Counted from the first letter of the stretch, positions 3,719-39,554 are shown. The stretch: DNA of 64,000 bases from Rhodospirillaceae bacterium (GCA_965229355.1 OZ245869.1:2078318-2142317), one strand, 5' to 3'. Notes: generated from the sequence alone by a model not told the origin. Program-made: numbers and translations.

Positions 3719-3723
3719 CCTGG
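3719..3723. repeat. target-site duplication CCTGG (left copy)
   Basis: Identical pentamer abuts both transposon termini (3719-3723 and 39550-39554). Confidence 0.75.
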
Positions 3724-3799
3724 TGTCGCCAGACATTGCTCTTTGCCAAATGGACATATGGGCTTGCCCAATTCGGACTTCAGCTTTTGCCCAATTGCG
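3724..3799 (+). repeat. tnsA-proximal (R-like) transposon end: 8-bp terminus plus three contiguous putative TnsB sites
   Basis: TGTCGCCA is followed by the units GACATTGCTCTTTGCCAAATG (3732), GACATATGGGCTTGCCCAATTCG (3753) and GACTTCAGCTTTTGCCCAATTGCG (3776). Confidence 0.7.
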
Positions 3800-3847
3800 T
3801 AAAACACAACAGGTAGTAGATTGCGCCATCAACGAGGCTAGTTATCG

Positions 3848-4270
3848 ATGGCGGCAATTAACTACGAAGAAAAAGCCAAGTCGCTAGGAAAAGCGATCAA
3901 AGGAGTTCGCGAAGAGCGACAGCTTACGCAAGCTGAACTCGGTGATCTCGTGGGATTGAGCCGACCGGCGATCGCAGCTTTTGAAACTGGCCGCGTAACG
4001 CCTTCACTCGAACTTGTGGATGTAATTGCCAGGGCATTGAGCCTCCACCCCAGAGCACTCGTAAACACCTATCTTGACCCAAACGCTGACAGCCTAACGC
4101 AGTCTGATGACAAGACTTTGCGGCGGGTCATCGCAAAGGTTCAAAGCATGCCAAAGCCACAGCTCGAGAATACGTCGCGACTGCTTGATCTCGTTATCCT
4201 TCGAGATGGCCTGCCGCGAGATGTTCGTAGGCCCAGAGAGACTGCGCGCCGCAAAGAGCGCGTGTCGTAA
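3848..4270 (+). CDS. XRE-family helix-turn-helix regulator (first gene inside the transposon end)
   Basis: The helix-turn-helix region reads QLTQAELGDLVGLSRPAIAAFETGRVTPSL. An RBS-like GAGG lies upstream. Confidence 0.8.
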   Translation: MAAINYEEKAKSLGKAIKGVREERQLTQAELGDLVGLSRPAIAAFETGRVTPSLELVDVIARALSLHPRALVNTYLDPNADSLTQSDDKTLRRVIAKVQSMPKPQLENTSRLLDLVILRDGLPRDVRRPRETARRKERVS

Positions 4271-4296
4271 ACAGTCCAAACGTCATCAATAGGTTA

Positions 4297-4334
4297 TTAA
4301 TAGTATCACGTCATAGTAATCGTGATATTTTAAG
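4297..4334. promoter_or_regulatory. palindromic operator-like site (motif copy O1)
   Basis: TTAATAGTATCACG-N10-CGTGATATTTTAAG with a perfect TATCACG/CGTGATA core, about 60 bp upstream of the 4394 gene. Confidence 0.5.
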
Positions 4335-4393
4335 TAACTCATGTGGTCGCCAGTCTTAAGGCGTGCGCTTTTGTCGCCGCATGAACAGGGCGA

Positions 4394-4873
4394 ATGCGCA
4401 TGACCACAGGCAATACTGAGTTCAGTCTCAACGCTCTCATGAAGTACGTCAGTGCTTTGAGCTACGAGACCATATCGCGCAATCCTGAGTGTCCGATCCG
4501 AATTGCTGCCATAGGACTCGAGCATCGTCAGCGACTGATTGTTGCTGCGTCAACAATACGAAGCGTACACAAGTCGCCGGCAGGCCAATTCTGCAGGTGG
4601 ACCATTTGGACCATCGATGGATTTCCAGGAGCTGCAGAGCCCGAACCTCATCTCACCGGCATAAAGATAGTAGGTGGAACGAGGTCTTATCAGACCACAA
4701 GCGAGGTCGTTGCAATCGCCCACGACTTAAGCTGTGTGCTCACAAGAAGCGGCAAACTATACGAGATTACAGACGAGAGCCCCGAGCTCACAAACGACGG
4801 GTTTATGCAGGTCGTATCGACATTGATCGCGTGGGGCTATCAGAACGCTCTCAGGCTTCCGCCAATTTACTGA
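4394..4873 (+). CDS. hypothetical protein, paralog of 11490..11963
   Basis: 159 aa. The C-terminal half aligns with the 11490 product (HLTG, TTS.V..IA.DLS.V.T.SG.LYE, EL.ND.F, WG, LPP..Y). Confidence 0.6.
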   Translation: MRMTTGNTEFSLNALMKYVSALSYETISRNPECPIRIAAIGLEHRQRLIVAASTIRSVHKSPAGQFCRWTIWTIDGFPGAAEPEPHLTGIKIVGGTRSYQTTSEVVAIAHDLSCVLTRSGKLYEITDESPELTNDGFMQVVSTLIAWGYQNALRLPPIY

Positions 4874-4886
4874 TCCCGAGCGTGCT

Positions 4887-5363
4887 TTATGCGACTGGCG
4901 GAAAGCCTTTCGCAACGAGACCTGAAACGAGGAACGCCCATGCTTTATGTGGATAAGCTTCCCACAATGCTTCATCGGAGCGCGGCGCTTCAGGCAAACT
5001 CTTTCTCCACCATAGATGAAATGGGCTTTCAATTTTCACCACGACCGACGGAAGCCCTAATTGATCGGCAGTGATGTCGATGATGATCTCACCAACTCTA
5101 AGCCATCCGTGCCTGATCCGATCATAGCCGGCATCCGACAAAACTCCCGATATGACAAACGGTTTTAAGCGGAGTGCTTGATCCATGTATCTGCCGAGCA
5201 GATCAGACGTGGGATACGACGCAATGGCGGGATGGGGATAAGAAGCCAGTGCCGGGAACCGATCAAAGGGCTCTTCCAATCCAGCTGACCGGCCCGCTTC
5301 AAAGACCTCTCTCGCACTCGTCGCGAGCTTGGTGAGGAACTCAACAGACCCATATTCGCTCAT
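4887..5363 (-). CDS. hypothetical protein
   Basis: 158-aa ORF convergent with 4394..4873. I recognise no family. Confidence 0.5.
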   Translation of the reverse strand: MSEYGSVEFLTKLATSAREVFEAGRSAGLEEPFDRFPALASYPHPAIASYPTSDLLGRYMDQALRLKPFVISGVLSDAGYDRIRHGWLRVGEIIIDITADQLGLPSVVVKIESPFHLWWRKSLPEAPRSDEALWEAYPHKAWAFLVSGLVAKGFPPVA

Positions 5364-5660: not shown

Positions 5661-6359
5661 ATGAATGCGCACTACCGAGCACAAGGAGTTAGGGCAGAAG
5701 GGCCGACGCCTGTTCCTCTGATAACGCCCGTTCGCATGTTGGGTCTGAACCCAACGACGGCTTCGCGCCGGGGTGTGTTTCAGAGCCGGAAGGTCGACGC
5801 GAGCCTCCATCATGAGAGTGGCTTAGAGAAAAGTGCGTTCATGCGCTTTGAGGCCGACCCGCGGGTAAAATCCTACTGCCCACAACCTTTCACCTTGCGA
5901 TACTTTGAGGACGGTCAAGCAGCGTCCTCAACGCCTGACATCCTGGTGGAGACAGCGACTGGCAAGGTAACCGTCGAAGTAAAACCGCTTAGTAAGCTGT
6001 GTCTGCCTGACGTTGCGCGCAAAATTGCAGCCACGGCACATCTGCTCCGCCAACGCGGCGAAAAATATATCGTTCTCACAGAACGTGAAATCTATTCCCA
6101 ACCGGCCCATGAAAACTCGTTGCTCGTCGCGCGCTATCGTTGGTGGCCGCTAGATCCGGACGCACGCGAAAAAGTGCTGAGCTACTGCCAGGATTTCGAA
6201 CAGCTTCCGGCAAAGAACTTACTTTCATTCATGTCGTTCCTTGGGAATGACGCGCCGCACGTACTATTGACGATGATGGCCCAAGACTACTTCGACTTCG
6301 ACATTTCGATGTCGTTGGATATTGCGCTCACCCTACGCTTGAAGCAGAGCGCGAAATGA
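5661..6359 (+). CDS. tnsA: TnsA-like transposition endonuclease
   Basis: Restriction-endonuclease-like triad ESGLE ... TPDILVE ... VEVKP. Its stop overlaps the tnsB start (ATGA). Confidence 0.85.
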   Translation: MNAHYRAQGVRAEGPTPVPLITPVRMLGLNPTTASRRGVFQSRKVDASLHHESGLEKSAFMRFEADPRVKSYCPQPFTLRYFEDGQAASSTPDILVETATGKVTVEVKPLSKLCLPDVARKIAATAHLLRQRGEKYIVLTEREIYSQPAHENSLLVARYRWWPLDPDAREKVLSYCQDFEQLPAKNLLSFMSFLGNDAPHVLLTMMAQDYFDFDISMSLDIALTLRLKQSAK

Positions 6360-8428
6360 ATAAGCCACTTTCCCCATTTCGCCTCACGCCCGGCCAAACC
6401 GTAATTTTCCGCGGCAAGGAGTACAGAGTATTTGGAAAAACGAGAGCCGGCTGGGCGCTCACGGGCGATGGCATTCCAGCTGTTGAGATCGCCGATACAG
6501 AGCTATTGGAACTGCTGGCTGCGCGCGAAATAAGCTTTATCGCCAACACTGCGGTTCTCAAGACGGCGCATGGTGTTGTGGAGGGCACTCAGTGTATCGC
6601 TGTCCAAGATGAGGCGTCATGGAAGGAAGCCTCTCTTCGCGTCGAGTATGTCTTGATGCTCGAAGCGACTGCTCGCGGATTTCGCACCGGTCATCGTTTC
6701 CAACAGGAAATCGACGACCTCGCTTTAAAGCTCGGAGACAAAGATCCGCCTAAGCCTCGGACTGTACGCGAATGGGCAAGGACGTATCGGAAAGGCTGCC
6801 GCGCGCAGGACGCACTTGTAAAGCAATCGGCTAAGGTCAGCCTCCGCCGCAAACGCCGCGCAGACGCCGCTGTTGATGCCGCCGTGCACAAGTATTTCGG
6901 CGTTTACTTGAAAACGCCTAATTCCGTCCGCGGCATTGCGATCCGTGATGCTCAGCGAGAACTGGAACAGGCCAACGCGACTTGGGTTCCATGTCCCAAG
7001 TATTTTTATCGCCGTTTCGACGAGCTCGAAGGCTTTGGGCCGACGACCACGAAATTTGGAAAGCACACGGCTCGTCGCATGCGGCGCCATACGCTCAATA
7101 GCATCACAGCGTCCCGACCGTTGGAACTGGTGCTCCTGGATTCAACTACCCTTGATGTGTTCGCCGCGTACGGAAAGAAGGGAAAGAAGCGTCCTTTTTT
7201 AACTTTGGTCATTGATGTCTATTCCCGTTTCCCTATCGGCTATTACCTCGGCTTTCGTGACCCGAGCAGTTGGACATCCATCGAAGCGCTGAAGTGCGCG
7301 ATATTGCCTAAGGATTGGGTTCAAAAACATTTCCCCGAATTAGGCCCCTGGTTAGCCCAAGGCATGATGGAAGGTGTGGGCGCCGACAACGGTCGCGAGA
7401 ATTTGGCCGTCTTCGTTGATGGCTGCAACTCACTTGCCATCGACTACTACAGAACGCCTGTGAAAACGCCTTGGGCGAACGGCATTGTCGAAAGGCTTAT
7501 CGGTCGCTGCAATCAACTGCTCCAGAAACTCCCTGGCAGCGTGGGATCTGATCCAGCCCTTATCTATGAAAAAGGCGGCATGCGCGACGACTGCTTAACC
7601 CTTAAGCAGATTGAACGTGAGCTACTAAGAATCATTATTGAAGAGATGCAGAACGCTCAACACACGACGCTCGGTGATAATCCAGGCCGTGTTTGGCTTG
7701 AGGGCGTTGAGCGATTCAAGGTTCGCCCGCCGTGCAATATTGAAAAGCTGGACATGCTCACCGGCGAGCAGATGCGTCGCTCTGCGTCACCGAATGGCAT
7801 CAAATATGATGGCATTCGTTACAACGGTGTCGCCTTGGAAGCACTGCGATTGCGCGATATTCGGCCTCGTCATCCTGATGAAACGGATCGTCCAAAATAC
7901 ACGATCATGGTCTACGAGAACGACATCACGCACATCAAAGTGTTTAATGAGGTCGACAAACACTTCTATACAATTCCCGCGATTGAGCCCGATCTGTACG
8001 ACGGACTTTCGCGCGGTGAGCATCAACTCATTCGCTCACGAGCGCTGAAGCACGCAAAAAAACGGCACCCTGGCTCAGAGTATCGAGGCGTGCATTCTCG
8101 CGACGATTATCTCCGCGCCAAGAAAGAGATTCTTTCGATTCCAGATGAAATTGTGAGCGTCGCGCATCGCGAAGTCATGAGGGCGCGCCCAACGCGCTTG
8201 ACCGAACCACCATCGCAATCCGTCGACACCACTCACCTTCTTGCCGGCGAGGCATCGTACGTCCAATCGAGCATCGACATTTCGAACATAAGTTCGTGCC
8301 CACCTATCGACATGTCGTCGCAACAGACGGACGTGGCCGCTCCCAAGCCTGCCAAGAAGTCCAAGGCCCCAGAGGCCGACCCCACACCCATATCCGCAGA
8401 TCAGTTCACGACCCTCGACTCAGAATAA
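6356..8428 (+). CDS. tnsB: TnsB-like DDE transposase (Mu/retroviral-integrase fold)
   Basis: 690 aa. DDE candidates are LLDSTTLDV, GADNGREN and ANGIVERL. It sits between tnsA and an AAA+ gene. Confidence 0.85.
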   Translation: MNKPLSPFRLTPGQTVIFRGKEYRVFGKTRAGWALTGDGIPAVEIADTELLELLAAREISFIANTAVLKTAHGVVEGTQCIAVQDEASWKEASLRVEYVLMLEATARGFRTGHRFQQEIDDLALKLGDKDPPKPRTVREWARTYRKGCRAQDALVKQSAKVSLRRKRRADAAVDAAVHKYFGVYLKTPNSVRGIAIRDAQRELEQANATWVPCPKYFYRRFDELEGFGPTTTKFGKHTARRMRRHTLNSITASRPLELVLLDSTTLDVFAAYGKKGKKRPFLTLVIDVYSRFPIGYYLGFRDPSSWTSIEALKCAILPKDWVQKHFPELGPWLAQGMMEGVGADNGRENLAVFVDGCNSLAIDYYRTPVKTPWANGIVERLIGRCNQLLQKLPGSVGSDPALIYEKGGMRDDCLTLKQIERELLRIIIEEMQNAQHTTLGDNPGRVWLEGVERFKVRPPCNIEKLDMLTGEQMRRSASPNGIKYDGIRYNGVALEALRLRDIRPRHPDETDRPKYTIMVYENDITHIKVFNEVDKHFYTIPAIEPDLYDGLSRGEHQLIRSRALKHAKKRHPGSEYRGVHSRDDYLRAKKEILSIPDEIVSVAHREVMRARPTRLTEPPSQSVDTTHLLAGEASYVQSSIDISNISSCPPIDMSSQQTDVAAPKPAKKSKAPEADPTPISADQFTTLDSE

Positions 8429-8436
8429 GGCCAGCC

Positions 8437-9306
8437 ATGTTTGAGCACACTGAAATCCTCCGCAAGATCCGCGACCTCAAGACCAAACGCGTCAAGTATC
8501 CGCAATATGTTCAGGCGTGTAAGCGCTTGAGTGATTTTATCACCCTGTCGGAATGTGGGGACGCGACCTTGCTTATGGGCGAAAGCGGCGTCGGCAAAAC
8601 TGTAACAGCAGAAACGGTCTACGACGCCTGCAAGCAAGTGTATGTATCCGATGATCCAAAGCACATGCCGGTAGTGAAATGTCGCCTTCCATCTTCGACC
8701 GGAACTAAAAGTTTGCTTGAGGTGGTTCTGGAGGCCGTGAAGTATCCATTCATCACAAGTGCTACGAAGGAGACGGTGCTAAGCCGCATTGTGCGAGAAG
8801 CTTACGCCGAGCGTGGTGTACGCGTGCTGTTTATCGATGAAATGCAGCGTGCCAAGCACAGCGACAAACGGACAAGAATTCAAGAGGTCGCAAACGCATT
8901 TACCTCCCTTATTGATGAACTCGGTATCGCGGTCGTGATGGTTGGCACTGAGGATATGCAAAATTTCACGCAGCAGTTCGAGCCATTCCGACGCCGCGCA
9001 CTCAAGAGAGTCGTTCTTAGACCATTCGATATGGATACATCCGCCGGCCGCCAGGATGTTCGCAACTTCGTTGGTACTCTTGCTCAGCATTTGCCCGCCC
9101 CCATTGATGGGGCTCTGGTTCAAGAGGAAGGGTTAACGTTTCTCGAAAAAACTACGTCGGGAAAGGTGGGCGTGATTAATGAGCTATTGCGCATCGCTGC
9201 GGCCGAAGAGGTGCGTGTATGCGACGGGGTCCCCAACATCATCTCGTTTGCCCGCATCCGTGAAGCCGCGGATGGCATGGATGTTTCACGCACTCTTGCC
9301 AATTAA
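8437..9306 (+). CDS. tnsC: TnsC-like AAA+ ATPase
   Basis: Walker A GESGVGKT and Walker B LFIDEMQ. The ATG at 8437 lies 8 nt after the tnsB stop, and the longer ORF start at 8296 overlaps tnsB. Confidence 0.8.
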   Translation: MFEHTEILRKIRDLKTKRVKYPQYVQACKRLSDFITLSECGDATLLMGESGVGKTVTAETVYDACKQVYVSDDPKHMPVVKCRLPSSTGTKSLLEVVLEAVKYPFITSATKETVLSRIVREAYAERGVRVLFIDEMQRAKHSDKRTRIQEVANAFTSLIDELGIAVVMVGTEDMQNFTQQFEPFRRRALKRVVLRPFDMDTSAGRQDVRNFVGTLAQHLPAPIDGALVQEEGLTFLEKTTSGKVGVINELLRIAAAEEVRVCDGVPNIISFARIREAADGMDVSRTLAN

Positions 9307-9316
9307 ACGTCCGAGT

Positions 9317-11029
9317 ATGAACTTTGTAGTCCACCCCGTTATCGCGCAACTACAGCCTTTTCCCGATGAGTCATTATTAGGATTTGGCCTGCGGATTGCC
9401 GAGGCCAATTGGGCACCGACTGGCCTCCGCGCTATTGCGATGGCCATTCACACTGCCAAAGAATCACGCAGTGATTACTTGTCCCTTGTGTCGAATATTG
9501 ACGCGCTGAGCCAGCTTACCCAGATCCCAGTGGAAGACCTCCAAGCCATGGCGTTTTGGCATTTGCCGCGGGACGAGTGGCCGGCCAGTTTTAATATCGG
9601 CCGTCACGGGGGCACCGTTTCGACCACTTCACTATATCGCGGCTTCTCTCGCATCTGCGTTGAATGCTTGAAGGAGCAACCTTACACGCGGCGCCTATGG
9701 GATTTGAAGTTCTACCAAGCCTGTCACATTCATCACTGCAAGCTTATCTCTAACTGTCATGGTTGCTCGAGATCGCTGAGCTGGCATCGTCCAACGCTTA
9801 TGCGTTGTAAAGCGTGCCATGCTGATATTCGAGGGGCGTGTTCACAGGCGGCGACCCAGGCAGAAGTGAACTTTGCGGGGTTCATCGCGGGTTGTGTCAA
9901 AGGGAGTGGTTCTGATAGCGCTCAACATGTTAGCATCGCGCCGGAATTTAAAGACATCTCGATTGGCGATCTCGTGAATGTGCTTGGGTTTCTAGCTGGC
10001 TATGCCAAGGACGGTTGTCCCATTGGCGTGCGCGGCATGGTGAGTTCAGGGAACGAAGAACTTCTCGAAAACTTGCGGGAGTGCGAGCAATTATTCGCGG
10101 ATTGGCCTAACGCGCTTTACCGAATGATTGACGCGAATATGCATTCCAGTAACGACTGGTTGCCTCCAGAGAAGAAATTTCCTCACATCTATCGAGCTAT
10201 TGCCAGGACGCACAAGTCAGCCTACCCGTTGACGCGTTTGCGGCCTCTTATGGTGCGTTATCTTGCTGAGCGCCACGGATCATATGCTGCGCAATGCGGG
10301 TCGCGGCATGGTGCAATTGAAGAGGCGGCACGCATAGCTGGATACATTACTCTTGGAGAGGCAGCCAGGTTACAGCAAACGAGTGTTGGGCTTATCAAGC
10401 GCGCCGCCCCAATAGTGGGCGTCACCATTCATCACGGTGATCGCATGGCTACCGCCCGGATCTTAAAGGAGGATCTAAAGTTACTGAGCGAAGAGCTTTG
10501 GTTTTCTCGCAGATCAAGGCTGCCAACAGGAGCGTATGGCGACTGGGATGCTTTGCCTAAAGTGGAGCCCGCTGAATGTCAGGCATCAACGAAAGTGCGC
10601 CAATCTGACCCAATAATTCCTCGTCAGCCGCAGCCACACCGCGATGTAATTCGTCGCGAGCGCGTAGACATGAAGGGCATTGGTCTTTCGCTTGGCGTGT
10701 CCCCAGCGACCGCCGCGCGTTTGCGACGTGATAGCCTGTTCGGTGCTTATAATCCCAACCGGCCGACCACGATCGCTGACGTGCTCGGATACATGGATGC
10801 GCTGGAACGGGGCTGTACGCCGTCTGAAGACCCACTGTTGGTCCCGTTAATGATATTGGCAGAGAAAAACTCGGTTTACTGGCGGGTGGGGCTTCGGACA
10901 GCGCTTAATCTTATAAAATCCGGCAAGCTTCTCGTACGGGGCGTGGACACGCGGGCCACCGGCTTAAATCGCATACTTCTGTCCGACGCGGACTTGCGTC
11001 AGCTTAACGATGACTGTGAGCGAGGATAA
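9317..11029 (+). CDS. tniQ: TniQ/TnsD-like target-selection protein
   Basis: The N-terminus (PFPDESLLGFGLRIAEANW) is typical of TniQ, and a Cys/His cluster (CVECL...CHIHHC...CHGC...C..C) follows. 570 aa from the ATG at 9317. Confidence 0.75.
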   Translation: MNFVVHPVIAQLQPFPDESLLGFGLRIAEANWAPTGLRAIAMAIHTAKESRSDYLSLVSNIDALSQLTQIPVEDLQAMAFWHLPRDEWPASFNIGRHGGTVSTTSLYRGFSRICVECLKEQPYTRRLWDLKFYQACHIHHCKLISNCHGCSRSLSWHRPTLMRCKACHADIRGACSQAATQAEVNFAGFIAGCVKGSGSDSAQHVSIAPEFKDISIGDLVNVLGFLAGYAKDGCPIGVRGMVSSGNEELLENLRECEQLFADWPNALYRMIDANMHSSNDWLPPEKKFPHIYRAIARTHKSAYPLTRLRPLMVRYLAERHGSYAAQCGSRHGAIEEAARIAGYITLGEAARLQQTSVGLIKRAAPIVGVTIHHGDRMATARILKEDLKLLSEELWFSRRSRLPTGAYGDWDALPKVEPAECQASTKVRQSDPIIPRQPQPHRDVIRRERVDMKGIGLSLGVSPATAARLRRDSLFGAYNPNRPTTIADVLGYMDALERGCTPSEDPLLVPLMILAEKNSVYWRVGLRTALNLIKSGKLLVRGVDTRATGLNRILLSDADLRQLNDDCERG

Positions 11030-11217: not shown

Positions 11218-11481
11218 ATGCCCGAACCTAAATTCACTCAGATCGGTATAGTCTTATCAGCTGGCGATGCCGAAGCTCTCAAGAGAGCCACTCTTCATTT
11301 GCGTGAGCAGCTGGGGCCAATGTTCAATATGACAGATGGCCCAATTTGCGAAGCGGGCGTGTACGAGGTGAACTGTTCATTCGGATTGTTGCCATCATCG
11401 AAACGGCCTGATCTTGTTCTCGTGCAGGGCGGCCGAACTCGGGGTCAACGCTCTCATGTCCCCGATGCGAATTCCAAGTAG
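11218..11481 (+). CDS. hypothetical small protein
   Basis: 87-aa ORF ending 8 nt before the next gene, directly after the O3 palindrome. Confidence 0.45.
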   Translation: MPEPKFTQIGIVLSAGDAEALKRATLHLREQLGPMFNMTDGPICEAGVYEVNCSFGLLPSSKRPDLVLVQGGRTRGQRSHVPDANSK

Positions 11482-11489
11482 GGGGCTCT

Positions 11490-11963
11490 ATGAACCACGA
11501 GTCCATCGAAATGCTTACGGGGTACATAGACGCACTCAGCTTCACGACGATTGCTCGTGTGCCTGATCCGCCGGTAACTTTTGGGATACCGACCGCAGAG
11601 CTTCGAAAAAAACTCACAATCGACGTGACTGAGTTTAACCTCAAAAAGAACCGCTATCGCTTCAAAGGCCAAATTAAAAACTGGACGTTCTGGACATTCA
11701 CTGACAAAGCCGCGCCCGAGCAAACCAGCATCCACTTGACAGGTACGCTTACGAGTCAAAGGGGTCTCCATCCATATCTGACGACCAGCCAGGTGCTGGA
11801 AATTGCGAGCGACTTAAGTGGTGTGATCACCAAGAGTGGAAGCCTCTACGAGCTTTCGAATGAGCGCGGCGAGCTCAATAACGACGAGTTCGTTCACCTG
11901 ATCTGTGTCCTTAACTCATGGGGACTTGGGGCGGATTTAAATTTGCCACCCCTTCATTACTAG
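11490..11963 (+). CDS. hypothetical protein, paralog of 4394..4873
   Basis: 157 aa. By eye it is about 40-45% identical to the 4394 product over the C-terminal 75 or so residues. Confidence 0.6.
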   Translation: MNHESIEMLTGYIDALSFTTIARVPDPPVTFGIPTAELRKKLTIDVTEFNLKKNRYRFKGQIKNWTFWTFTDKAAPEQTSIHLTGTLTSQRGLHPYLTTSQVLEIASDLSGVITKSGSLYELSNERGELNNDEFVHLICVLNSWGLGADLNLPPLHY

Positions 11964-12004: not shown

Positions 12005-12532
12005 GTGATGGTCGACTACATCTGCATCGACATCGAAGCGTCCGGGCTTCACAAGAATTGCTATCCGATTGAGGTGGCATTGGCTCTGCCGATAACGGCC
12101 CTTGAAAAGGCCTGGCTCATTGCGCCAACACCGGAGTGGCGTGACAATGGTATCTGGGAAGAGCAGGCGGAAGCTTTGCATGGCATCACTCGTGCTGACC
12201 TTTTTCGCAATGGCGTCCTACCGGAAGTCGTCGTTGGCGAGCTCATAGTTTGCATCGGCGAAAAACAGCTGGTGTCAGATTGTCCGAGTGCGGATGGAGG
12301 ATGGCTTCAGCAGCTTTTCGCCGCTGCGGACGTACATCGAGAATGGAGGATCCATGATCTCGACGAAGTTGCGCGCCGCATTACGTGGGGTAGGGGTGTG
12401 CATCATGAAGCAGCCTTATCGGCAGCCCGGACCTATGCTCAGACAGTCTGCCCTAAAATGCACCGCGCACTTCCAGACGCACGTCACAATGCTGCGATAC
12501 TTCAACACCTTAACGTGGCGCCGAGCTGTTAG
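12005..12532 (+). CDS. DEDDh (DnaQ-like) 3'-5' exonuclease
   Basis: Exo I motif CIDIEASG, Exo II region LVSDCPSADGGWL, Exo III motif HRALPDARHNA. The start is GTG 12005 or ATG 12008. Confidence 0.75.
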   Translation: MMVDYICIDIEASGLHKNCYPIEVALALPITALEKAWLIAPTPEWRDNGIWEEQAEALHGITRADLFRNGVLPEVVVGELIVCIGEKQLVSDCPSADGGWLQQLFAAADVHREWRIHDLDEVARRITWGRGVHHEAALSAARTYAQTVCPKMHRALPDARHNAAILQHLNVAPSC

Positions 12533-13425: not shown

Positions 13426-13793
13426 TGAGAACGTCGATTGAGCTGGAAATCGCTGGGGTCTCCTTATCCTATGCCAAAAATTATATCGGGGTTGATTTTG
13501 GCTTCCTGTTTCAGGATGGCGACGAGACGCGACGTAGATCAGACGCCATCGACTATGAGTATTATGAGGATCACCCGGATGAGATCGCAGACCTAGAAGA
13601 GAGCGAGGCCGCTTTTGCCAGACCTCTTTCGCGCGTGCTGCCGCGTCTATCGCTCCTCGGATCCACGATACAAACCGCGCGTGCTGAATATGAGGCGGTG
13701 ATCGCGGAAGCTCTAGAAATGAGTTCTGGCGAAGGGCGCGAACTTGGCCTGCTGTCGTTCGATGAATTTTGCTTGCTTGCCGCTATCCGTTGA
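13425..13793 (+). CDS. hypothetical acidic protein (gene 2 of the coupled operon)
   Basis: 122 aa from GTG 13425. Its stop overlaps the next start (TGATG). The ORF-track start at 13389 would overlap gene 1. Confidence 0.5.
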   Translation: MRTSIELEIAGVSLSYAKNYIGVDFGFLFQDGDETRRRSDAIDYEYYEDHPDEIADLEESEAAFARPLSRVLPRLSLLGSTIQTARAEYEAVIAEALEMSSGEGRELGLLSFDEFCLLAAIR

Positions 13794-27325: not shown

Positions 27326-27334
27326 GAAACAAAA

Positions 27335-31533
<4,199 letters not shown>

Positions 31534-31551
31534 GATCGGAAAGGAAAACCA

Positions 31552-31983
31552 ATGATTAAAACCAAAGTGATCCTGCTCTCAACGATGTTGGCTTTTGCAA
31601 TGGGTGCTGCCCCAGCAATCGCAAGTGAACAACATAATCATGGGGCTGGCGGTGCGATGACGTTTCCGTCGGCATCAGCAGGTTTGAAAACGATCGACGA
31701 ACTTATCGCTGAAGCTAAGGCAAAGATCGCCAAAGGCGATTTCGAGGGTCTGCATGAATCCTCTGAAGAATTCCAATCGGCCTCGAAGGGCTTGAATAGT
31801 CGCCTCTCCGACATTCCGCAGGCGAACGCAGAACGCTTCAAGTTCAATGTCGAGCAAATCCGCTCACTCGGCGCGCAACTTGAAGAGGCTCATGAGAGCA
31901 AGAACAAGGCAGAGGCCGATACCGTAATCAAACGTCTGGAAGGTGTTCGCGATCGCCTGAAGTCGCTCACAGTTCCGAGTTAA
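31552..31983 (+). CDS. secreted helical protein of unknown function
   Basis: Signal peptide ...GAAPAIAS, then EQHNHG, and a predicted helical bundle. It starts 18 nt after czcA. Confidence 0.55.
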   Translation: MIKTKVILLSTMLAFAMGAAPAIASEQHNHGAGGAMTFPSASAGLKTIDELIAEAKAKIAKGDFEGLHESSEEFQSASKGLNSRLSDIPQANAERFKFNVEQIRSLGAQLEEAHESKNKAEADTVIKRLEGVRDRLKSLTVPS

Positions 31984-32007
31984 CTCACAAGCAGAACCGC
32001 TTGTGAG
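31984..32007 (+). terminator. stem-loop after the czc operon (weak terminator candidate)
   Basis: CTCACAAGC-agaacc-GCTTGTGAG. A second hairpin CCCCCAA...TTGGGGG follows. There is no clear U-tract. Confidence 0.3.
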
Positions 32008-32093
32008 TAGGGAAGTCTCCGGCACTCCCCAAAACCCCCAAAACCTAGTGTTGGGGGCTTCCCTGGCCCTATTTGCAAAAGGTGAGACATCTC

Positions 32094-32600
32094 ATGACCC
32101 GAAAGTCAGAACTGCTAAAAGCAATTGTCCTTGCAATCCCCTTCACTGGTATTTTGGCAGGGTGTGCAACTTCATCTGAGCCTTGCTCTAGCGCATCGCC
32201 AGCGTCTTCTGTTGTCGGAGGTATCGACGACACCAAACGTTTTCGTCGCGATTGGCGAGAATTACACGATCATCTAACCGCTCTAGAGGAGGCGGCAGAG
32301 CGCCGAGATGATCAGGCGTGGAAAGTTTCGGCGGCGTCTCTCGGTAAAGCAATGTGGGAGCTGACCCGCTACGCGCCTCGCTATGGCGGCCGATCCTGCG
32401 AGGCTGTCGGTGCATACGCCACAGAAGTTGTGACGATCGCTGCTAACTTGAAAGAAAATGATGCCGAATTCAGTTGGACTCGCGCATCCGACGTCACACA
32501 GCAGGTGCGACAGCTCTCTACCAGCCTGAGGGCCGCGCTGCCGGAATGGTGGTTTCTCAGCAATCATCGGCATGGGCGCAAAATGCACAGAGGCACGTAG
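32094..32600 (+). CDS. putative lipoprotein
   Basis: Lipobox FTGILAGC. ATG 32094 is preceded by AAAGGTGAG. Confidence 0.55.
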   Translation: MTRKSELLKAIVLAIPFTGILAGCATSSEPCSSASPASSVVGGIDDTKRFRRDWRELHDHLTALEEAAERRDDQAWKVSAASLGKAMWELTRYAPRYGGRSCEAVGAYATEVVTIAANLKENDAEFSWTRASDVTQQVRQLSTSLRAALPEWWFLSNHRHGRKMHRGT

Positions 32601-32603
32601 CGT

Positions 32604-33215
32604 ATGAAACGTGCGCTCGTCTCCATAATCGGTGTCGCCCTAATGTCGTTCATATCCGCCGCCCACGCGGAAAAGCCGGCATTTTGTGCGACACCGAACC
32701 AGGCACAACTGATTCAAGCAAAGTACAAAAGTCTCCCAGGTAGTCGGCCCTCCAATATCGGGGCAGCATTGAGCCTTCCGGAGGCAACGGTGTTGAGTGG
32801 GCTACCGGTAGATCAGTCAGTGGCTGTTCGCGCCAGTGAGTTAGCTCTCGTCTGGGCATCGCTGTCAAAATGGACCAATGCCCTTACTCTCGTCTCACGC
32901 GATGGACATGATTTCGAAATCAATGGTCCAGTGCATGCTGGTGAGATGGACGACAAAGGTAAGTTTCACTTGGCGACAATCGGCTGGGGTGCGGCGGGGC
33001 ATCTCAATGCAAATGAAATCGGAGGCATTTTTGCATTGTCATTGCCGACGCATACTAACCTACGCATTAACGGAGTGCTTTTCACAAATCGGGATGGCGC
33101 TTCAAGCTTCGCGATCATGGTTCCGACTGTGAATGGTCAGCCATCGAGAACTGTAACTTCTGATTACTACGAAACAGCCGCTTTGATGCGGACTCTCCCA
33201 AAGCTGTGTTCTTAG
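32604..33215 (+). CDS. secreted ChuX/HutX-like protein (paralog 1)
   Basis: It has a signal peptide. LPEATVLSGLP...WASLSKW...FEINGP...GHLNANEIGGIFAL...GASSFAIMV matches the HutX/ChuX haem-carrier pattern. Confidence 0.6.
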   Translation: MKRALVSIIGVALMSFISAAHAEKPAFCATPNQAQLIQAKYKSLPGSRPSNIGAALSLPEATVLSGLPVDQSVAVRASELALVWASLSKWTNALTLVSRDGHDFEINGPVHAGEMDDKGKFHLATIGWGAAGHLNANEIGGIFALSLPTHTNLRINGVLFTNRDGASSFAIMVPTVNGQPSRTVTSDYYETAALMRTLPKLCS

Positions 33216-33283
33216 GTGCGCTCGTAAGGTGGATCGGCCAGTAGGCTGCTAACTCATTAGGCTTAACGTTTCGGTATTTTGAT

Positions 33284-35287
33284 ATGAATGATCATTCAGG
33301 CCACGACCATGATAGTTCAGCGGATCATACAGGCCACGATCACGCCCATGGGGCGATCTTCGGCGAACACACTGAACTGCTTTTTGCCATTGGTTGTGGC
33401 GTTGCGCTTGGCGCGGGCTACTTCATTGAACGCTCCACAGGCGCGGATGGTGGCCTCTCGTTCGCGCTCTATCTTCTCGCCTACTTCCTGGGCGGCTTTT
33501 ACACAGTTAAGGAAGCCATCGACAACTTAAGACTGAAGCGTCTGGAGATTGACTCGTTGATGCTGCTGGCTGCCATTGGCGCCGCTGCGCTGGGGGAGTG
33601 GGCTGAAGGCGCACTTCTTCTGTTTCTCTTCAGCATCGGTCATGCTCTCGAGCACTACGCTATGGGGCGCGCGCGCAAAGCCATCGAAGCCTTGGCCAAG
33701 CTTGCTCCAAAGATGGCTGAGGTCCGAAGAAACGGCGCGGTAACTGAGGTGTTTGTCGAAGAGCTGGTGGTGGGAGACATCGTCCTCGCGCGGCCTAATA
33801 GTCGCATTCCAGCTGATGGCTTCGTCATCCTTGGAGTGAGCAGCGTCAATCAGGCCCCGGTTACTGGTGAGAGCATGCCTGTTGATAAGGAGCCGGTGCC
33901 GGATCATGGCCGCGCGTCCTCTAAGCCCGAGGCCGTGTCGTCAAAGCACCGCGTATTTGCGGGGACCATCAACGGTGCTGGAGCGCTCGAGATTTTCGTC
34001 ACGCGCTTATCGGCCGACAATACGCTTGCCCGAGTGGTCAAAATGGTCAGCGAGGCGGAAGCACAAAAATCGCCGACACAACGATTGACTGACAAGTTCG
34101 AGCGCATCTTTGTGCCAGTGGTTCTTTCATTCGTGGTGTTGTTGCTGTTTGCTGGTTTTGTGATTGATGAGGCATTCCGCGACACATTTTACCGCGCCAT
34201 GGCTGTACTGGTTGCGGCGAGCCCCTGTGCATTAGCCATAGCGACCCCAAGCGCCGTGTTATCGGGCGTGGCGCGCGCGGCGCGCGGCGGAGTGCTCATC
34301 AAGGGCGGGGGCCCACTGGAGATGTTGGGAACATTGCGCGCTATAGCATTTGATAAAACCGGCACTCTCACTGAAGGACAGCCTAAAGTGATCGACGTCG
34401 CGCGCGCGGAGGGATCGGAGGAGTCCGAATTCGTGCGTGTTGCGATCGCTGTCGAGCGTCAAAGCGACCACCCGCTTGCGGCGGCGGTCGTCCGCGATCT
34501 CGAGAAACGGCTTATCGAGAATACCGACATTCCAACCGCCACCGACGTTAACGCCATTACGGGCCGAGGTCTGTCGGCGACGGTGGGCGGCGACGTCGTT
34601 CACATTGGTAAGATCGAGTTATTCACAGAAGTTCCTGGCGCTCCCGTGCCTGCTGATGTGAAGGCAACAGTAGATAGGTTGGCGGCGGCTGGACGCACGA
34701 CAATGATCGTCCGGAAAGGTGGCAAGTACCTAGGTGTTTTGGGACTGATGGACACGCCACGTCCCGCCGCCAGGGCGGTGATTGAGAAGCTACGCGCGCT
34801 CGGTATCGATCGCATGATCATGCTCTCGGGTGACAACTCTGTGGTTGCTAAGAACGTGGCGCAGGAAGTGGGTCTCGATGAAAGCCGCGGCGACCTTATG
34901 CCCGACGACAAGGTGAATACTATCAAGGCGCTGCGCGCGGAACAGAAGGTCGCAATGGTAGGCGACGGCGTAAACGACGCACCGGCCATGGCCAACGCCG
35001 ATGTAGGCATCGTGATGGGTGCCGCGGGTTCGGACGTGGCGCTAGAGACGGCCGACGTGGCGTTGATGGCAGATGACTTAAATCATTTACCATTTGCAGT
35101 CGGACTGAGCCGGCAGGCGAGTGGCGTCATCCGCCAGAACTTATGGATGAGCTTAGGGATGGTCGCATTCTTAATTCCTGCGACGCTATTCGGGCTCCAA
35201 ATCGGGTTTGCTGTTCTTCTTCATGAAGGATCTACCCTTGTGGTCGTCATCAACGCACTGCGCCTGTTGGCGTACCGCAAGGAATAA
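33284..35287 (+). CDS. P1B-4-type heavy-metal ATPase (CzcP/CoaT-like)
   Basis: SPC motif (VAASPCAL), DKTGTLT, GDGVNDAP and HEGST in the last TM helix. The N-terminus is His-rich (HSGHDHDSSADHTGHDHAHG). At 667 aa it has no ferredoxin-like metal-binding domain. Confidence 0.9.
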   Translation: MNDHSGHDHDSSADHTGHDHAHGAIFGEHTELLFAIGCGVALGAGYFIERSTGADGGLSFALYLLAYFLGGFYTVKEAIDNLRLKRLEIDSLMLLAAIGAAALGEWAEGALLLFLFSIGHALEHYAMGRARKAIEALAKLAPKMAEVRRNGAVTEVFVEELVVGDIVLARPNSRIPADGFVILGVSSVNQAPVTGESMPVDKEPVPDHGRASSKPEAVSSKHRVFAGTINGAGALEIFVTRLSADNTLARVVKMVSEAEAQKSPTQRLTDKFERIFVPVVLSFVVLLLFAGFVIDEAFRDTFYRAMAVLVAASPCALAIATPSAVLSGVARAARGGVLIKGGGPLEMLGTLRAIAFDKTGTLTEGQPKVIDVARAEGSEESEFVRVAIAVERQSDHPLAAAVVRDLEKRLIENTDIPTATDVNAITGRGLSATVGGDVVHIGKIELFTEVPGAPVPADVKATVDRLAAAGRTTMIVRKGGKYLGVLGLMDTPRPAARAVIEKLRALGIDRMIMLSGDNSVVAKNVAQEVGLDESRGDLMPDDKVNTIKALRAEQKVAMVGDGVNDAPAMANADVGIVMGAAGSDVALETADVALMADDLNHLPFAVGLSRQASGVIRQNLWMSLGMVAFLIPATLFGLQIGFAVLLHEGSTLVVVINALRLLAYRKE

Positions 35288-35382
35288 GAGGTGATGATGA
35301 TCATCATCACCACCATCACCACCGGCGGCGGTGACGCCGCCGTCATCATGTTCCGTGAATAAATTCAACAGGGGGATTAACG

Positions 35383-36015
35383 ATGAACTTTACAAAACTG
35401 AAAACCGTAACTTGGATTAGTGCCGCAACGGTTCTTGCTGCCATTAATGTGGCATCGGCCGCCGACAGTCCTTTATGTGCCTCGCCAGAACAAGCGGCCA
35501 AAGTCTCGGAGGCCTATAAGGCGTCGCCGGGTGGGCTACCTTTTATGGTGAATAAGCAACTTGGGTTGACGGAATCTCAAGTGGTAAGTGCGCTGCCACA
35601 AGGCCAGGCAATTGGCGTCGCAACGAGTGAGTTCGCCAAGGTTTGGGATACTCTAACCAAGTGGGAACATGGCGTCGTGCTGGTGGTCACCGGCGGCCAG
35701 GTTCTTGAAATCCACGGGCCGATTAAAAGTGGCGCGCCTTCCACACGGAGCAAGAACTTCAACCTTTCCACAGATGGCGATGGAATGTCCGGGCATTTAC
35801 GTCCTGATCTGCTGTCAGCGATCTATGCAATTTCTCTCCCTGGCAAAGACGATAACAAAACGCGTGGCGTAATGTTCATGGACGCTGAAGGAAAATCTGC
35901 GTTCGGCGTCTTCATGCCGACCGAGGCCAAACCGCTGACGCAAGCGCAGATCGCACAGTTCGATGCGACCTGGGATGCGATGAAGGGTATGCCGTCGGCC
36001 TGCGCCAAGAACTAA
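35383..36015 (+). CDS. secreted ChuX/HutX-like protein (paralog 2)
   Basis: It has a signal peptide and the same motif order as 32604..33215 (CASPEQAAKV, LTKW, LEIHGP, GHLRPDLLSAIYAI, GKSAFGVFMP). Confidence 0.6.
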   Translation: MNFTKLKTVTWISAATVLAAINVASAADSPLCASPEQAAKVSEAYKASPGGLPFMVNKQLGLTESQVVSALPQGQAIGVATSEFAKVWDTLTKWEHGVVLVVTGGQVLEIHGPIKSGAPSTRSKNFNLSTDGDGMSGHLRPDLLSAIYAISLPGKDDNKTRGVMFMDAEGKSAFGVFMPTEAKPLTQAQIAQFDATWDAMKGMPSACAKN

Positions 36016-37101: not shown

Positions 37102-37413
37102 TCAGTGCTCGAGCACGTACACGATCAACGGCGTCAGCACAAAGAATGCTTGTAAGCCTGTGCGGTGCTTAACGCCAAACCGTTGTCCACTCCAACGAGA
37201 ACCGAAGTAGACGCCAGCTATAACGATGACTGTAAGTGCAACTGCGATGATGCCGCGCTGTACGATCGCGTCAGTGACAGCATTCGATTGTACGGCAGGG
37301 ACGATGCGGTCGTAAGAATGGCGGATGATGTCGATGCATGCTCCCATAACAAATGCCGTTAGATAGGCGAGGCCCAATAACCATAGCGGCGCTGACGGTT
37401 GCACTTGTGTCAT
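37102..37413 (-). CDS. small membrane protein of unknown function
   Basis: 103 aa with three hydrophobic segments. Confidence 0.4.
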   Translation of the reverse strand: MTQVQPSAPLWLLGLAYLTAFVMGACIDIIRHSYDRIVPAVQSNAVTDAIVQRGIIAVALTVIVIAGVYFGSRWSGQRFGVKHRTGLQAFFVLTPLIVYVLEH

Positions 37414-37459
37414 TGTTTATCCCCGTTGGTGATGCGCGAGGGCGCATGTGGATGTGTGT

Positions 37460-38737
37460 TTAAAGCAGATCTTGAGCAGCGCGTGTTTCTGCATGTTCGA
37501 ATGCTTCTTTAAACGCCGATGCTTCCTCAGGTGTCATGCCTAAGCGGTACGCTTCGTCTTTCCATTGGCTCACGGCCGAGTAGAGTTCCCCAAGTATCTG
37601 AAGGGCCCTTGCCTCTTTAATTTTGAAGTAAGGCAGCACTGACATGAGGGCTGACATGGTGGCGTCAGGCCCGACTTCTTCCGATATCCATGTCTTGAGT
37701 TCGCGCACACGATCAGGGAATGGATTCACGTCAAAGGTTGGAGAGAGCGTCCACAGCCCATTTTCAACATGGATAAATCCATGATTGTGAAGGTGATCAT
37801 CCACATTAGTGATCAGAATTGAGAAGCCTATGCGACGCCACAGCTCCTCAATGTCTTCAGTGACGTGTCGACCATTTTGACGGATCACATCAACGATCTC
37901 GGTGTAGCTGCGGGGATCAGGATCTGCCGCGTCCACGCCGAGCATGGTGGCGGCTGACACATACATGTGGCGATCACCATTGGCCGTTCTGTCGAAACGG
38001 CGAATGAGGGCGACGGGCAGGCCGTCGCTGTCCACGATACGCGCGTCAGCAGTTCTAATGCCAGCCATCTTGGCCAAGTTCAATGCAAGGACTTCACCTT
38101 TGGTGACGGCCCTTTCATCTGAAACACTGGGGAATTTGCCGATCGCTAAATGCCCATCTGTATCAATGATCGTGCACTTGGGCCGCATTCCGCCGAGCGA
38201 TGTTCCGCGGCCGCGCAGGTAGGCCAGATCGGCTTCGGTGTCTTTGTTTAGCTCGACCGCTCTTGTGGCCGCTAAAAGATGCCGGAGTTCAATGAGCGGC
38301 GGTGTACCTCGCCCTTGCCCCTCAATGGTTCTTTGGTAGAGCCCATTTTCATCACGCATCCGTAATGCACCAATGCGGCTCATGTCATCGACGGCCAAAA
38401 GGTAGTCCATTTCGTTTAATGGACGATCATCGAATGGTGTTTTCGTTCGACGCGCCTGGTCCCGGCGCTTCACATGATCCCGGTTTATAACTCGACGTGC
38501 CCAGCCATCAGGTTCTGTATCGGAAATAGCGCCGTGGAAAATTGAGGCGTCCTTGCTCTTGGTGCGAAATTGCGGACCAGAGACCAATTGTAGCGTGGGA
38601 TCAATCGCGTATCTGTCAGCATTGGCCAACCAATCCGCTGAATACTCAAATGATGCGTTCTCGCGCGCGCCCTGTTGATTGTAGAAGAGTTTCCCAACCG
38701 GTGTTTCGTTGATATCGATTTGGATCTCGCGTTTCAT
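37460..38737 (-). CDS. hipA: HipA-family Ser/Thr kinase toxin
   Basis: LGGMRPKC, LIRRFDR and ITNVDDHLHNHGF motifs. It overlaps the upstream helix-turn-helix gene by 4 nt. Confidence 0.85.
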   Translation of the reverse strand: MKREIQIDINETPVGKLFYNQQGARENASFEYSADWLANADRYAIDPTLQLVSGPQFRTKSKDASIFHGAISDTEPDGWARRVINRDHVKRRDQARRTKTPFDDRPLNEMDYLLAVDDMSRIGALRMRDENGLYQRTIEGQGRGTPPLIELRHLLAATRAVELNKDTEADLAYLRGRGTSLGGMRPKCTIIDTDGHLAIGKFPSVSDERAVTKGEVLALNLAKMAGIRTADARIVDSDGLPVALIRRFDRTANGDRHMYVSAATMLGVDAADPDPRSYTEIVDVIRQNGRHVTEDIEELWRRIGFSILITNVDDHLHNHGFIHVENGLWTLSPTFDVNPFPDRVRELKTWISEEVGPDATMSALMSVLPYFKIKEARALQILGELYSAVSQWKDEAYRLGMTPEEASAFKEAFEHAETRAAQDLL

Positions 38738-39066
38738 GATGGGCCCCGCTGCCGTGCTGGGCGCACTTTACGCGGTAAGCGCTCTGCTTCGAGCAGCAGA
38801 CCTTGATCATCATTCTTCGCGTCCAGCACTTCGCCAAAGTTCACGCGCATACCCAGCACGAAAAGGATCATCGCGTAGACCCCAATCCCCACCGTGGGGT
38901 CACCAGTCTGGGCCCGTTGGTAAGTCGCCATCGATACCCCAACGCGCTCGCTCATCATGGCCATCGTGAGCCTGCGCTTTTTGCGCGCAATCTCGATGTC
39001 CTCTCCAAGCTTTTTGAGAGAACGCCTGACCGATGTCGGCAGTATATCGTGGACAGCTCCGCGCAT
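38734..39066 (-). CDS. hipB: HipB-like XRE-family antitoxin
   Basis: Helix-turn-helix region RRLTMAMMSERVGVSMATYQRAQTG. It is the first gene of the hipBA pair. Confidence 0.75.
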   Translation of the reverse strand: MRGAVHDILPTSVRRSLKKLGEDIEIARKKRRLTMAMMSERVGVSMATYQRAQTGDPTVGIGVYAMILFVLGMRVNFGEVLDAKNDDQGLLLEAERLPRKVRPARQRGPS

Positions 39067-39071
39067 GATTT

Positions 39072-39116
39072 ACTCATATATAAGTCAATATGGCTTATAT
39101 ATACTTATATATGAGT
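39072..39116. promoter_or_regulatory. hipBA operator-like perfect inverted repeat
   Basis: ACTCATATATAAGT-N17-ACTTATATATGAGT, starting 6 bp upstream of the hipB start codon. Confidence 0.55.
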
Positions 39117-39411
39117 ATTATACTTCCATCAATGCCTGACCAGAGTTGTCTGAAGCTCAGATAATATGTTCATGAGAAGGGGCGGTAAGAGGTAAAAAAT
39201 ACCCCTATAGACATCCCTACATTGTAAAAGATATTTAAAATCAATGTATTAGGAGAATTCGATCCCCAGCGCAAAATACCAGGATCGGGGTCTCATAGAG
39301 ATATAGAGTCTGGAATTTGCAGCCGCGCTTTATAGCTTCAAAATCAGAGGGTCGCGTTGCTCATCCGATGGGAGTTAACGCCATAAAATCCTTTATTTAT
39401 CAATAACTTAA

Positions 39412-39549
39412 CTTTTGGCAATAATTAGCGTCCGAAACCACGCTGTTGGCAATAATTAGGGTTCGGCTTGGGCAATACCCAAATGTCCGAAAACTGCTAA
39501 GGCGCTGGACTCATTGAATCGACTTGGCGGAATTTAAAGTCCGGCGTCA
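39412..39549 (-). repeat. distal (L-like) transposon end: four spaced putative TnsB sites plus the terminus
   Basis: The + strand units are TTGGCAATAATTAGCGTC (39415), TTGGCAATAATTAGGGTTC (39446), TTGGGCAATACCCAAATGTC (39468) and TTGGCGGAATTTAAAGTC (39524), followed by CGGCGTCA. Confidence 0.7.
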
Positions 39550-39554
39550 CCTGG
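39550..39554. repeat. target-site duplication CCTGG (right copy)
   Basis: It directly follows the terminal ...GGCGTCA and is identical to 3719-3723. Confidence 0.75.

Follow-up and report, generated by a model that had tools for sequence, protein, structure and literature searches.

The 64,000-nucleotide window analysed here, from a Rhodospirillaceae bacterium (GCA_965229355.1; OZ245869.1:2078318-2142317), contains a Tn7-type element of 35,826 bp at positions 3724-39549, bracketed by two copies of CCTGG. It is most probably a single, apparently intact, protein-guided cut-and-paste transposon of the Tn7 family that homes to the 5′ regulatory DNA of a host tetR gene. Every family feature that can be examined in sequence was found: TnsA, TnsB, TnsC and TniQ, inverted repeat-bearing TG...CA ends, a 5-bp duplication, and insertion at an attachment (att) site. 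Membership of the Tn7 family was judged from these sequence features, and the end repeats are candidate TnsB sites on the same grounds. The window comes from a circular-looking metagenomic contig of 4.44 Mb (ENA ERZ25074234), onto which the sequences L001, L013 and L014 also map, L013 being identical to the window over its full length.

The target-site duplication consists of CCTGG at 3719-3723 and again at 39550-39554, a direct repeat that cannot be extended on either side. Between these copies the element begins with TGTCGCC at 3724 and finishes with GGCGTCA at 39549, giving 5′-TG/CA-3′ at both ends. The tns-proximal end (3724-3794, + strand), the “right end” by Tn7 convention, opens with the terminus TGTCGCCA and continues with a contiguous array of three candidate TnsB sites (3731-3749, 3752-3771 and 3775-3794; offsets 7, 28 and 51). 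The distal or “left” end (39415-39549, − strand), whose terminus reads inward as TGACGCCG, carries four spaced candidate sites at 39524-39542, 39468-39488, 39446-39464 and 39415-39433, all on the − strand (offsets 7, 61, 85 and 116). The repeat unit, 19-21 bp of the form GGAC-N8/9-YYGCC(C)AA, is confined to the two ends, where it lies in opposite orientations, and at both ends the outermost unit stands 7 bp from the terminus. The GC content of the element (0.535) equals that of the left flank.

The repeat arrays, which lie far beyond chance expectation, are decisive for the ends. The motif G[AG]AC-N8/9-[TC][TC]GCC(C)AA occurs six times in the 64 kb on both strands, against 0.4 copies expected from shuffles, and all six copies, together with one AGAC variant (seven units altogether), fall within the two claimed ends. 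As the 7-bp rule would fix the termini independently of the flanks, flanking 5-mers that match would be expected by chance only about once in 1000. An element in another Rhodospirillaceae genome, at locus L010, provides an outside comparison: the two elements are homologous from exactly the predicted TGT terminus inward (window TGTCGCCAGAC; L010 TGTTTCCGGAC) and the repeats have the same offsets of 7, 28 and 51, which fixes the tns-proximal boundary to the base. We are thus highly confident that 3724-39549 is one Tn7-like element.

A first-pass annotation of the window had located the two CCTGG copies, the termini and the repeat-unit starts (3732, 3753 and 3776; 39415, 39446, 39468 and 39524), and every coordinate and string was correct; computational alignment of the ends reproduced its count of 19 identities in the terminal 30-nt inverted match. 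Its argument that this match and the 5-bp duplication prove the element did not stand. The window contains 2.35 million pairs of positions with a 5-bp direct repeat in common; of these, all of which were enumerated, 60 showed inverted identity of at least 19/30, so that the observed match is equalled or bettered many times over and is not significant; six of these pairs remained when TG...CA ends were demanded.

All four core transposition proteins that had been placed at 5661-11029 were confirmed, each encoded on the + strand. The endonuclease subunit gene tnsA (5661-6359; 232 amino acids, aa) matches PF08722 above its cutoff (8e-9, 36.3 bits) and NF033179 below that profile's cutoff (1.5e-17), and alignment of its product to TnsA of the CRISPR-associated transposon (CAST) PseCAST (5e-6) shows the E/D/K motif positions retained. 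The tnsB gene (6356-8428; 690 aa) encodes a DDE transposase for which Pfam gave nothing below 1e-3 (rve only at 0.008); its identity comes from phmmer matches to PDB entries, namely TnsB of PseCAST (1.5e-29), Tn6677 (4e-23), ShCAST (4e-15) and Tn7 (6e-5), and from the triad D262/D344/E379, which is invariant across relatives. The product of tnsC (8437-9306; 289 aa, gene call in L001) is a minimal AAA+ regulator of the TniB family (PF05621, 7.7e-21) with Walker A GESGVGKT and Walker B IDE; it is closest to the TnsCs of CASTs, matching ShCAST TnsC at 2.5e-12 as well as Vch TnsC. The last gene, tniQ (9281-11029; PF06527, 7.3e-19), encodes the presumed target selector, a protein of TnsD length (582 aa). 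Its zinc-finger core, in which CxxC motifs are visible, matches TniQ of type I-F3 CASTs (1.4e-8), a match limited to that core, and a C-terminal extension of ∼370 aa follows. It is homologous over its full length to the 570-aa TniQ of a related element at locus L021, and a word-indexed search for TniQ homologues matched only the query itself. TnsA, TnsB, TnsC and the TnsD-length TniQ all look intact.

No CRISPR array, Rfam CRISPR match, tRNA, or Cas gene or Cas Pfam family was found in the window. Since it has neither an array nor a Cas gene, the element is a protein-guided Tn7-like transposon and not a CAST, an identity that we considered and rejected on the lack of cas genes and of an array inside the element.

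The clade to which this TnsB belongs is very sparsely sampled. A word-indexed search of 5.8 billion clusters with TnsB returned one relative, P0002, at 56% identity, and nothing else above 30%. In an exhaustive HMMER search of 1.84 billion representatives, 2144 family members fell below 1e-10 and 223 representatives below 1e-30, and the nearest other cluster was 32% identical; a metagenome scan with TnsB gave no match. The TnsB cluster itself is a single sequence confined to the two database records of the source genome (ENA and NCBI), and among about 15 billion proteins only one other TnsB is at least 50% identical to it.

The element lies upstream of a host tetR gene (3001-3633, − strand; PF00440) that encodes 210 aa from an ATG at 3633 and whose 5′ end faces the transposon; an exact look-up of its product matched the source genome only. 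Within the intervening candidate att sequence, 3634-3718, is an operator-like block whose inverted-repeat arms occupy 3646-3663 and 3692-3709 and in which GTCAA stands at 3686-3690. We compared the window with 14 related tetR loci, whose TetR orthologues are 64-94% identical; relatives of the host are freshwater Rhodospirillaceae metagenome-assembled genomes. The block TACA..CA.AC..TGTATG..GTCAAG, with palindromes of the type ATACA-N4-TGTAT, is kept at the tetR loci of all relatives, and divergence sets in immediately after it. The element was inserted ∼30 bp past this block and 90 bp away from the tetR start, its tns-proximal end turned toward the block.

On one side of the related loci, tetR, an abhydrolase gene and usually TerC are kept; on the other, each unoccupied lineage has different genes, none of which is present in the window. 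Twelve of the loci have no element: 11 are clearly unoccupied, and L008, whose contig stops 49 bp upstream of tetR, is uninformative. The contig end of L008 (TetR 90% identical) lies inside the operator block, where a variable or repeated element at this site may have broken the assembly. Synteny with the relatives' tetR neighbourhoods is lacking throughout 39555-64000, which marks the tetR upstream region as a synteny breakpoint and a recombination or integration hotspot in this group. The first part of the right flank, 39555-42000, has a GC content of 0.49 (vs 0.54) and carries first an orphan GNAT gene and then a hemerythrin-like gene. The TerC gene of the left flank has a terC RNA motif upstream of it, at 1894-1956 (Rfam RF03067, 54.4 bits).

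Related elements recur at this site. The P0002 element (L010-L012), with TnsA, TnsB and TnsC 59, 56 and 61% identical to those of the window, adjoins an orthologous tetR (79.5%) within the same flank synteny (abhydrolase, Ni_hydr_CYTB, DUF4112 and hydantoinase). The P0040 element (L022-L024), one of the two next-nearest lineages (TnsB 32% identical in the HMMER search, ∼30% by tblastn), occupies the same tetR site in the same orientation as the window and L010 elements. Its host flank is 99.1% identical to that of L010 up to the junction, which places the L022 and L010 hosts in the same species. The elements of L022 (8380-8620) and L010 (6400-6700) start within 1 bp of each other, and the P0040 end repeats (AGAGTGTCNC, four copies) are unrelated to the GGAC-N8-YYGCC repeats of the L010 element. 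With unrelated ends at one junction and the same flanks, one host species therefore carries alternative elements at one site in different samples. Three lineages (TnsB 100, 56 and ∼30% identical) are thus found in the same orientation, within ∼12 bp, just past the operator-like block upstream of orthologous tetR genes, the window junction lying 31 bp past the conserved GTCAA and those of L010 and L022 21-22 bp past it.

These insertions are independent events and not inherited ones, as hosts nearer to that of the window than the L010 host is are unoccupied, namely L020 (TetR 94%) and L002 (TetR 91%). A single ancestral insertion shared by the window and L010 hosts was accordingly ruled out, by these unoccupied nearer relatives, by the ∼10-12-bp offset between junctions, and by the greater divergence of element proteins (48-61%, or ∼30%, identical) than of host proteins (80-84%). 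The first-pass annotation had held that tns genes at different junctions in relatives would count against its boundaries. Such junctions do exist in L010 and L022, but the elements there are diverged and were inserted independently ∼10-12 bp away; they support a dedicated att site and do not refute the boundaries. That the element homes to a tetR-proximal att site is, on this evidence, likely.

A further relative, the P0041 element of L021 (8180-8445, 8442-14794), has the same gene order as the window, Xre-TnsA-TnsB-TnsC-long TniQ, with a TnsB 29-32% identical. Its end has a TGT terminus followed by three contiguous repeats with a 21-bp period. It is inserted next to mraZ, on the 5′ side of that gene, where the dcw cluster begins. 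Upstream of mraZ are three TGGG(A/T) direct repeats, spaced with a period of 10 bp, which we take to be MraZ boxes, and the element lies ∼45 bp beyond them.

Shorter TniQs occur at the tetR site, of 235 aa in L011 and 151 aa in L022-L024. The latter (L022:12992-13562, L023:9684-10135, L024:4648-5099) break inside the zinc-finger motif, and all three independent contigs stop within ∼115 bp of the break, which suggests a repeat, an insertion sequence or a strain-variable junction there; the L011 TniQ stops right after the core. Both forms look truncated, not minimal. We had considered a short TniQ acting with an unknown partner in L011 and L022, and judged truncation the better account, given the zinc-finger break at contig ends and the L011 stop after the core.

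An Xre-family helix-turn-helix (HTH) gene is the first gene inside the tns-proximal end in all four elements. In the window it encodes 140 aa (3848-4270, + strand; PF01381/PF13560), and its product is nearest, below cutoff, to the RstR repressor subfamily of phage-type repressors. Element-encoded Xre proteins of type I-F3 CASTs act as regulators, not as selectors, and by analogy the protein here probably represses or otherwise controls the transposition genes. Between diverged lineages at the tetR site the Xre proteins are 26-32% identical. The xre promoter and 5′ end are ∼90% identical in DNA between the window (3795-3860) and L010 (6716-6780), and an inverted repeat, GCCATC...GATGGC, spans the xre start codon inside this stretch; the two Xre proteins are 81% identical, compared with only 56-61% for TnsA, TnsB and TnsC. 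Such identity points to strong constraint on the xre region or to recombination of a regulatory module.

Four small open reading frames (ORFs) without a family match (4400-4873, 4887-5363, 11218-11481 and 11490-11963) flank the core genes. The first (157 aa, + strand) and second (158 aa, − strand) are uncharacterised genes with homologues in the L010 and L021 elements. Two of the four are 157-aa paralogues, 38% identical to each other, and the others encode 158 aa (on the opposite strand) and 87 aa. Their homologues in L021 are up to 71% identical, though TnsB is only 29% identical there, and the group could be either a conserved accessory module of the clade or exchanged cargo. These small conserved ORFs, and likewise two cargo proteins of 561 and 352 aa, had no match in Pfam, NCBIfam, PHROGs or PADLOC.

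In the mechanism that we propose, the DDE transposase TnsB and the endonuclease TnsA would excise the element at its TG...CA termini, while the long TniQ would bind the conserved block upstream of tetR and recruit the TnsC ATPase; TnsA and TnsB would then insert the element a fixed short distance away, generating the 5-bp CCTGG duplication. Insertion would occur in one orientation, with the tns-proximal end toward the operator-like block. Tn7 at attTn7, in the TnsD pathway, has the same geometry, its tns-proximal end facing the TnsD site in glmS. The Xre gene inside the end would control expression of the transposition genes, and everything between 11.2 and 39.1 kb is cargo carried as one unit. 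The anatomy of the element, the family of its four core proteins, the paired repeat arrays and the recurrence of related elements at the site are observed, and from them we infer that the element would be active in transposition. Long TniQ/TnsD proteins are direct att readers, and short TniQs need a partner (Faure et al. 2023, PMC10293859); whether TniQ reads the operator block directly in this element is, in our estimate, about an even call.

Several results weigh against this mechanism or against the exactness of the boundaries. The 19/30 terminal match with its 5-bp repeat is at chance level when taken alone, and the distal boundary is placed by evidence from within the window only, namely the repeat array and the duplication. 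An uninterrupted tetR-GNAT interval had been predicted for related genomes, the reconstructed empty site being TGATCGGCCCTGGAATCGTAGCGG and the uninterrupted reading ...GATCGGCCCTGGAATCGTAG...; no base-level empty site was found among the 14 related tetR loci, where the gene upstream of tetR is a different one in every relative, and these loci include no unoccupied one from the host species of L010 and L022. The closest relative, L020 (TetR 94%, TerC 93% and abhydrolase 97% identical; no tns genes), is colinear with the window over 12-3706 at 81% DNA identity, with residual similarity by eye to about 3717, a few base pairs from the terminus, which speaks for the left boundary; blastn of the window against it returned the left-flank block only, and nothing right of the element matched. 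The right flank, which includes AATCGTAGCGGTGAGCAGTACCGCC, showed no similarity above shuffles to the relatives' tetR upstream regions, and its GNAT protein (185 aa) is an orphan, with no homologue below 1e-20 in the 5.8 billion clusters. A tetR-GNAT empty site is probably absent from public data. The distance from the conserved block to the insertion is also ∼10-12 bp greater in the window than in L010 and L022, so that spacing is not fixed across the family, and with TniQ truncated in the two other tetR-site elements, an intact selector is documented at that site by the window only. Neither a DNA-binding nor any other domain was matched by sequence in the TniQ extension, and a single-sequence AlphaFold2 (AF2) model of TniQ was unusable (mean predicted local distance difference test score, pLDDT, of 39). 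Finally, a split HEPN/Toprim gene in the cargo hints at some decay.

Some of these results could be accommodated if the boundaries are right and the element is an immobile fossil, an explanation that we consider possible though unlikely. It would account for the cargo gene split into two ORFs, and it agrees with the truncated tniQ of the two other tetR-site elements, which makes decay look common in the clade, and with a TnsB cluster made up of one sequence from the two database records of the source genome only. A fossil would not be expected to keep four full-length core ORFs with catalytic and Walker motifs intact, a perfect duplication, seven well-kept end repeats and the long TniQ. It is very improbable that the unit is larger or composite, with 39549 an internal or neighbouring end and the GNAT/hemerythrin region also inserted. 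Tn7-like elements can accumulate at att sites (Benler et al. 2021), nothing right of 39555 is syntenic with any relative, GC drops to 0.49 at 39.5-42 kb, and the GNAT gene is an orphan; but 39555-64000 contains no further copy of the end motif, 48-64 kb is ordinary chromosomal DNA, and the CCTGG duplication implies that the GNAT flank, from 39555 onward, adjoined the tetR upstream region before the element arrived. As for a coincidental similarity of the ends, with the tns genes a remnant that has no defined ends, the 60 chance pairs in the window would allow it, but seven motif copies in two inverted clusters that bracket the tns genes, the identical repeat offsets in L010, and element-to-element homology that starts at the predicted terminus effectively refute it.

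The remaining alternative accepts the transposon and its site and concerns the choice of target, which might be made through a host transcription factor bound to its own operator (TetR, or MraZ in L021) or by the Xre protein as selector, and not by TniQ reading DNA. Four lineages (three at tetR, one at mraZ) lie against the 5′ regulatory DNA of genes for autoregulated transcription factors, and two elements with unrelated ends lie within 1 bp of each other, their Xre identities being known only relative to the window's (81% and 26%); the Xre gene is invariably first inside the end, and sequence searches show no DNA-binding domain in the TniQ extension. On the other side, the long TniQ has the length of TnsD-like selectors, which bind att directly, and the short TniQs are most simply truncations. 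The Xre proteins of I-F3 CASTs are regulators, and identity of only 26-32% between lineages that share the tetR site sits poorly with Xre as the selector. As for sensing of the regulator, the operator of a conserved regulator is itself a conserved sequence, which is what a TnsD-type protein would evolve to read. We regard selection by regulator or Xre as distinctly improbable, and retain the protein-guided transposon that homes to tetR 5′ regulatory DNA.

Set beside known systems, the transposon resembles Tn7 (TnsABC+TnsD) in its heteromeric TnsA+TnsB, its TnsC ATPase and its TniQ-family selector of TnsD length; in its TG...CA termini, 5-bp duplication and several TnsB-type repeats per end; and in its orientation-specific insertion with the tns-proximal end toward a conserved host sequence a few tens of base pairs off. 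The first-pass annotation had described the ends as mirroring those of Tn7, which is borne out for the contiguous tns-proximal and spaced distal arrangement but not for the numbers of sites, since three contiguous and four spaced sites are the reverse of the four and three of Tn7. Unlike Tn7, moreover, it has a TnsB only marginally similar to the Tn7 protein (6e-5), a minimal TnsC of ∼290 aa where that of Tn7 has 555 aa, no TnsE, an Xre gene inside its end, and an att site that lies 5′ of a regulator gene, in its regulatory DNA, instead of in the 3′ end of a housekeeping gene (glmS).

The closest solved relatives of its TnsB (1.5e-29 and 4e-23), TnsA (5e-6) and TniQ core (1.4e-8) are proteins of type I-F3 CASTs (Tn6677 and PseCAST/Tn7016), which share with it an element-encoded Xre-family regulator; an I-F3 TnsC is among the PDB matches of its TnsC, for which the best match is type V-K ShCAST. 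It differs from I-F3 CASTs in lacking cas genes and a CRISPR array, its targeting being protein-guided, in a TniQ of 582 aa with a long extension (vs ∼400 aa), and in the place of Xre, which is at the element's end instead of between tnsC and tniQ. A dedicated att site, a TniQ/TnsD-type selector and large, variable cargo rich in defence and resistance genes are shared with the protein-guided Tn7-like families (comM/Tn6022, yhiN/Tn6230, tRNA and others; Benler et al. 2021, Faure et al. 2023). It is set apart from those families by its TnsB, the nearest outside the window/P0002 pair being ∼30-32% identical, and by the lack of a TnsF-type partner. With Tn5053/Tn402 (TniA-TniB-TniQ-TniR) it has in common a small TniB-type ATPase (PF05621) and a TniQ, whereas its multi-repeat end arrays and chromosomal att site (vs res sites) are unlike that group, and membership was rejected because TnsA is present and no resolvase is among the annotated genes. 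We found no tetR- or mraZ-proximal Tn7-like att site in the searchable literature; the class of mechanism is known, and the clade and target are apparently new.

The cargo region (11218-39066) was described by the first-pass annotation as including a Bil-like operon, a metal-efflux block and hipBA, and these components were identified. Beyond the small conserved ORFs at 11218-11963 it begins with a DEDDh exonuclease gene (12005-12532) and the split HEPN/Toprim gene (13389-14689), and continues with a TauD-like gene (16133-17161). The N-terminal HEPN/Toprim domain (PF18871) is divided over overlapping ORFs at 13389-13793 and 13769-14689, which cover profile positions 3-113 and 143-221; the split points to a frameshift in, or pseudogenisation of, a defence-type gene, or else to an error in the assembly. 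A complete BilA-BilB-BilC-BilD operon occupies 18166-20885 (PADLOC E-values 6e-25 to 1.5e-92). Just upstream of it, on the − strand at 17158-17978, a gene for a 100-aa Xre-HTH protein is paired with one for a 173-aa IrrE/ImmA-type M78 peptidase, a pair that may act as a regulatory switch for the adjacent defence genes. The metal-efflux block spans 23361-36015 and comprises genes for MerR (23361-23768), a CDF transporter (23834-24475), a CzcCBA-type RND pump (26021-31533), two ChuX_HutX-domain proteins (32604-33215 and 35383-36015) and a P-type ATPase (33284-35287). The HipA toxin gene hipA (37460-38737; PF07804) has upstream of it a 110-aa ORF (38734-39066) with a sub-threshold HTH_3 match (E 0.007), which from its position is a putative hipB antitoxin gene. 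Several cargo ORFs are without a family match.

A Tn7-like transposon with readable ends is routine, thousands having been catalogued. The att site in tetR 5′ regulatory DNA is apparently undescribed, and it is used by three lineages with transposase identities as low as ∼30% and with unrelated end repeats; this convergence makes the site a clean natural system for studying how Tn7-type selectors read their targets, and the mraZ sister lineage hints at a wider habit of targeting operator regions. In its boldest form, which we think quite unlikely, the element would belong to an undescribed Tn7-like clade (Xre-TnsA-TnsB-TnsC-long TniQ) of freshwater Alphaproteobacteria, as its sole intact member sampled. 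The clade would home to the operator and promoter DNA of genes for autoregulated transcription factors (tetR, with mraZ in the sister lineage), perhaps via an operator-bound regulator or a new selector domain, and not by reading the 3′ end of a housekeeping gene. Because its nearest solved relatives are proteins of I-F3 CASTs, the clade adds a protein-guided outgroup near the CRISPR-guided transposons. The exact boundaries also mean that BilABCD ubiquitin-like defence, heavy-metal efflux, and HipA with a putative hipB form a single travelling unit of 35.8 kb in an uncultured freshwater bacterium.

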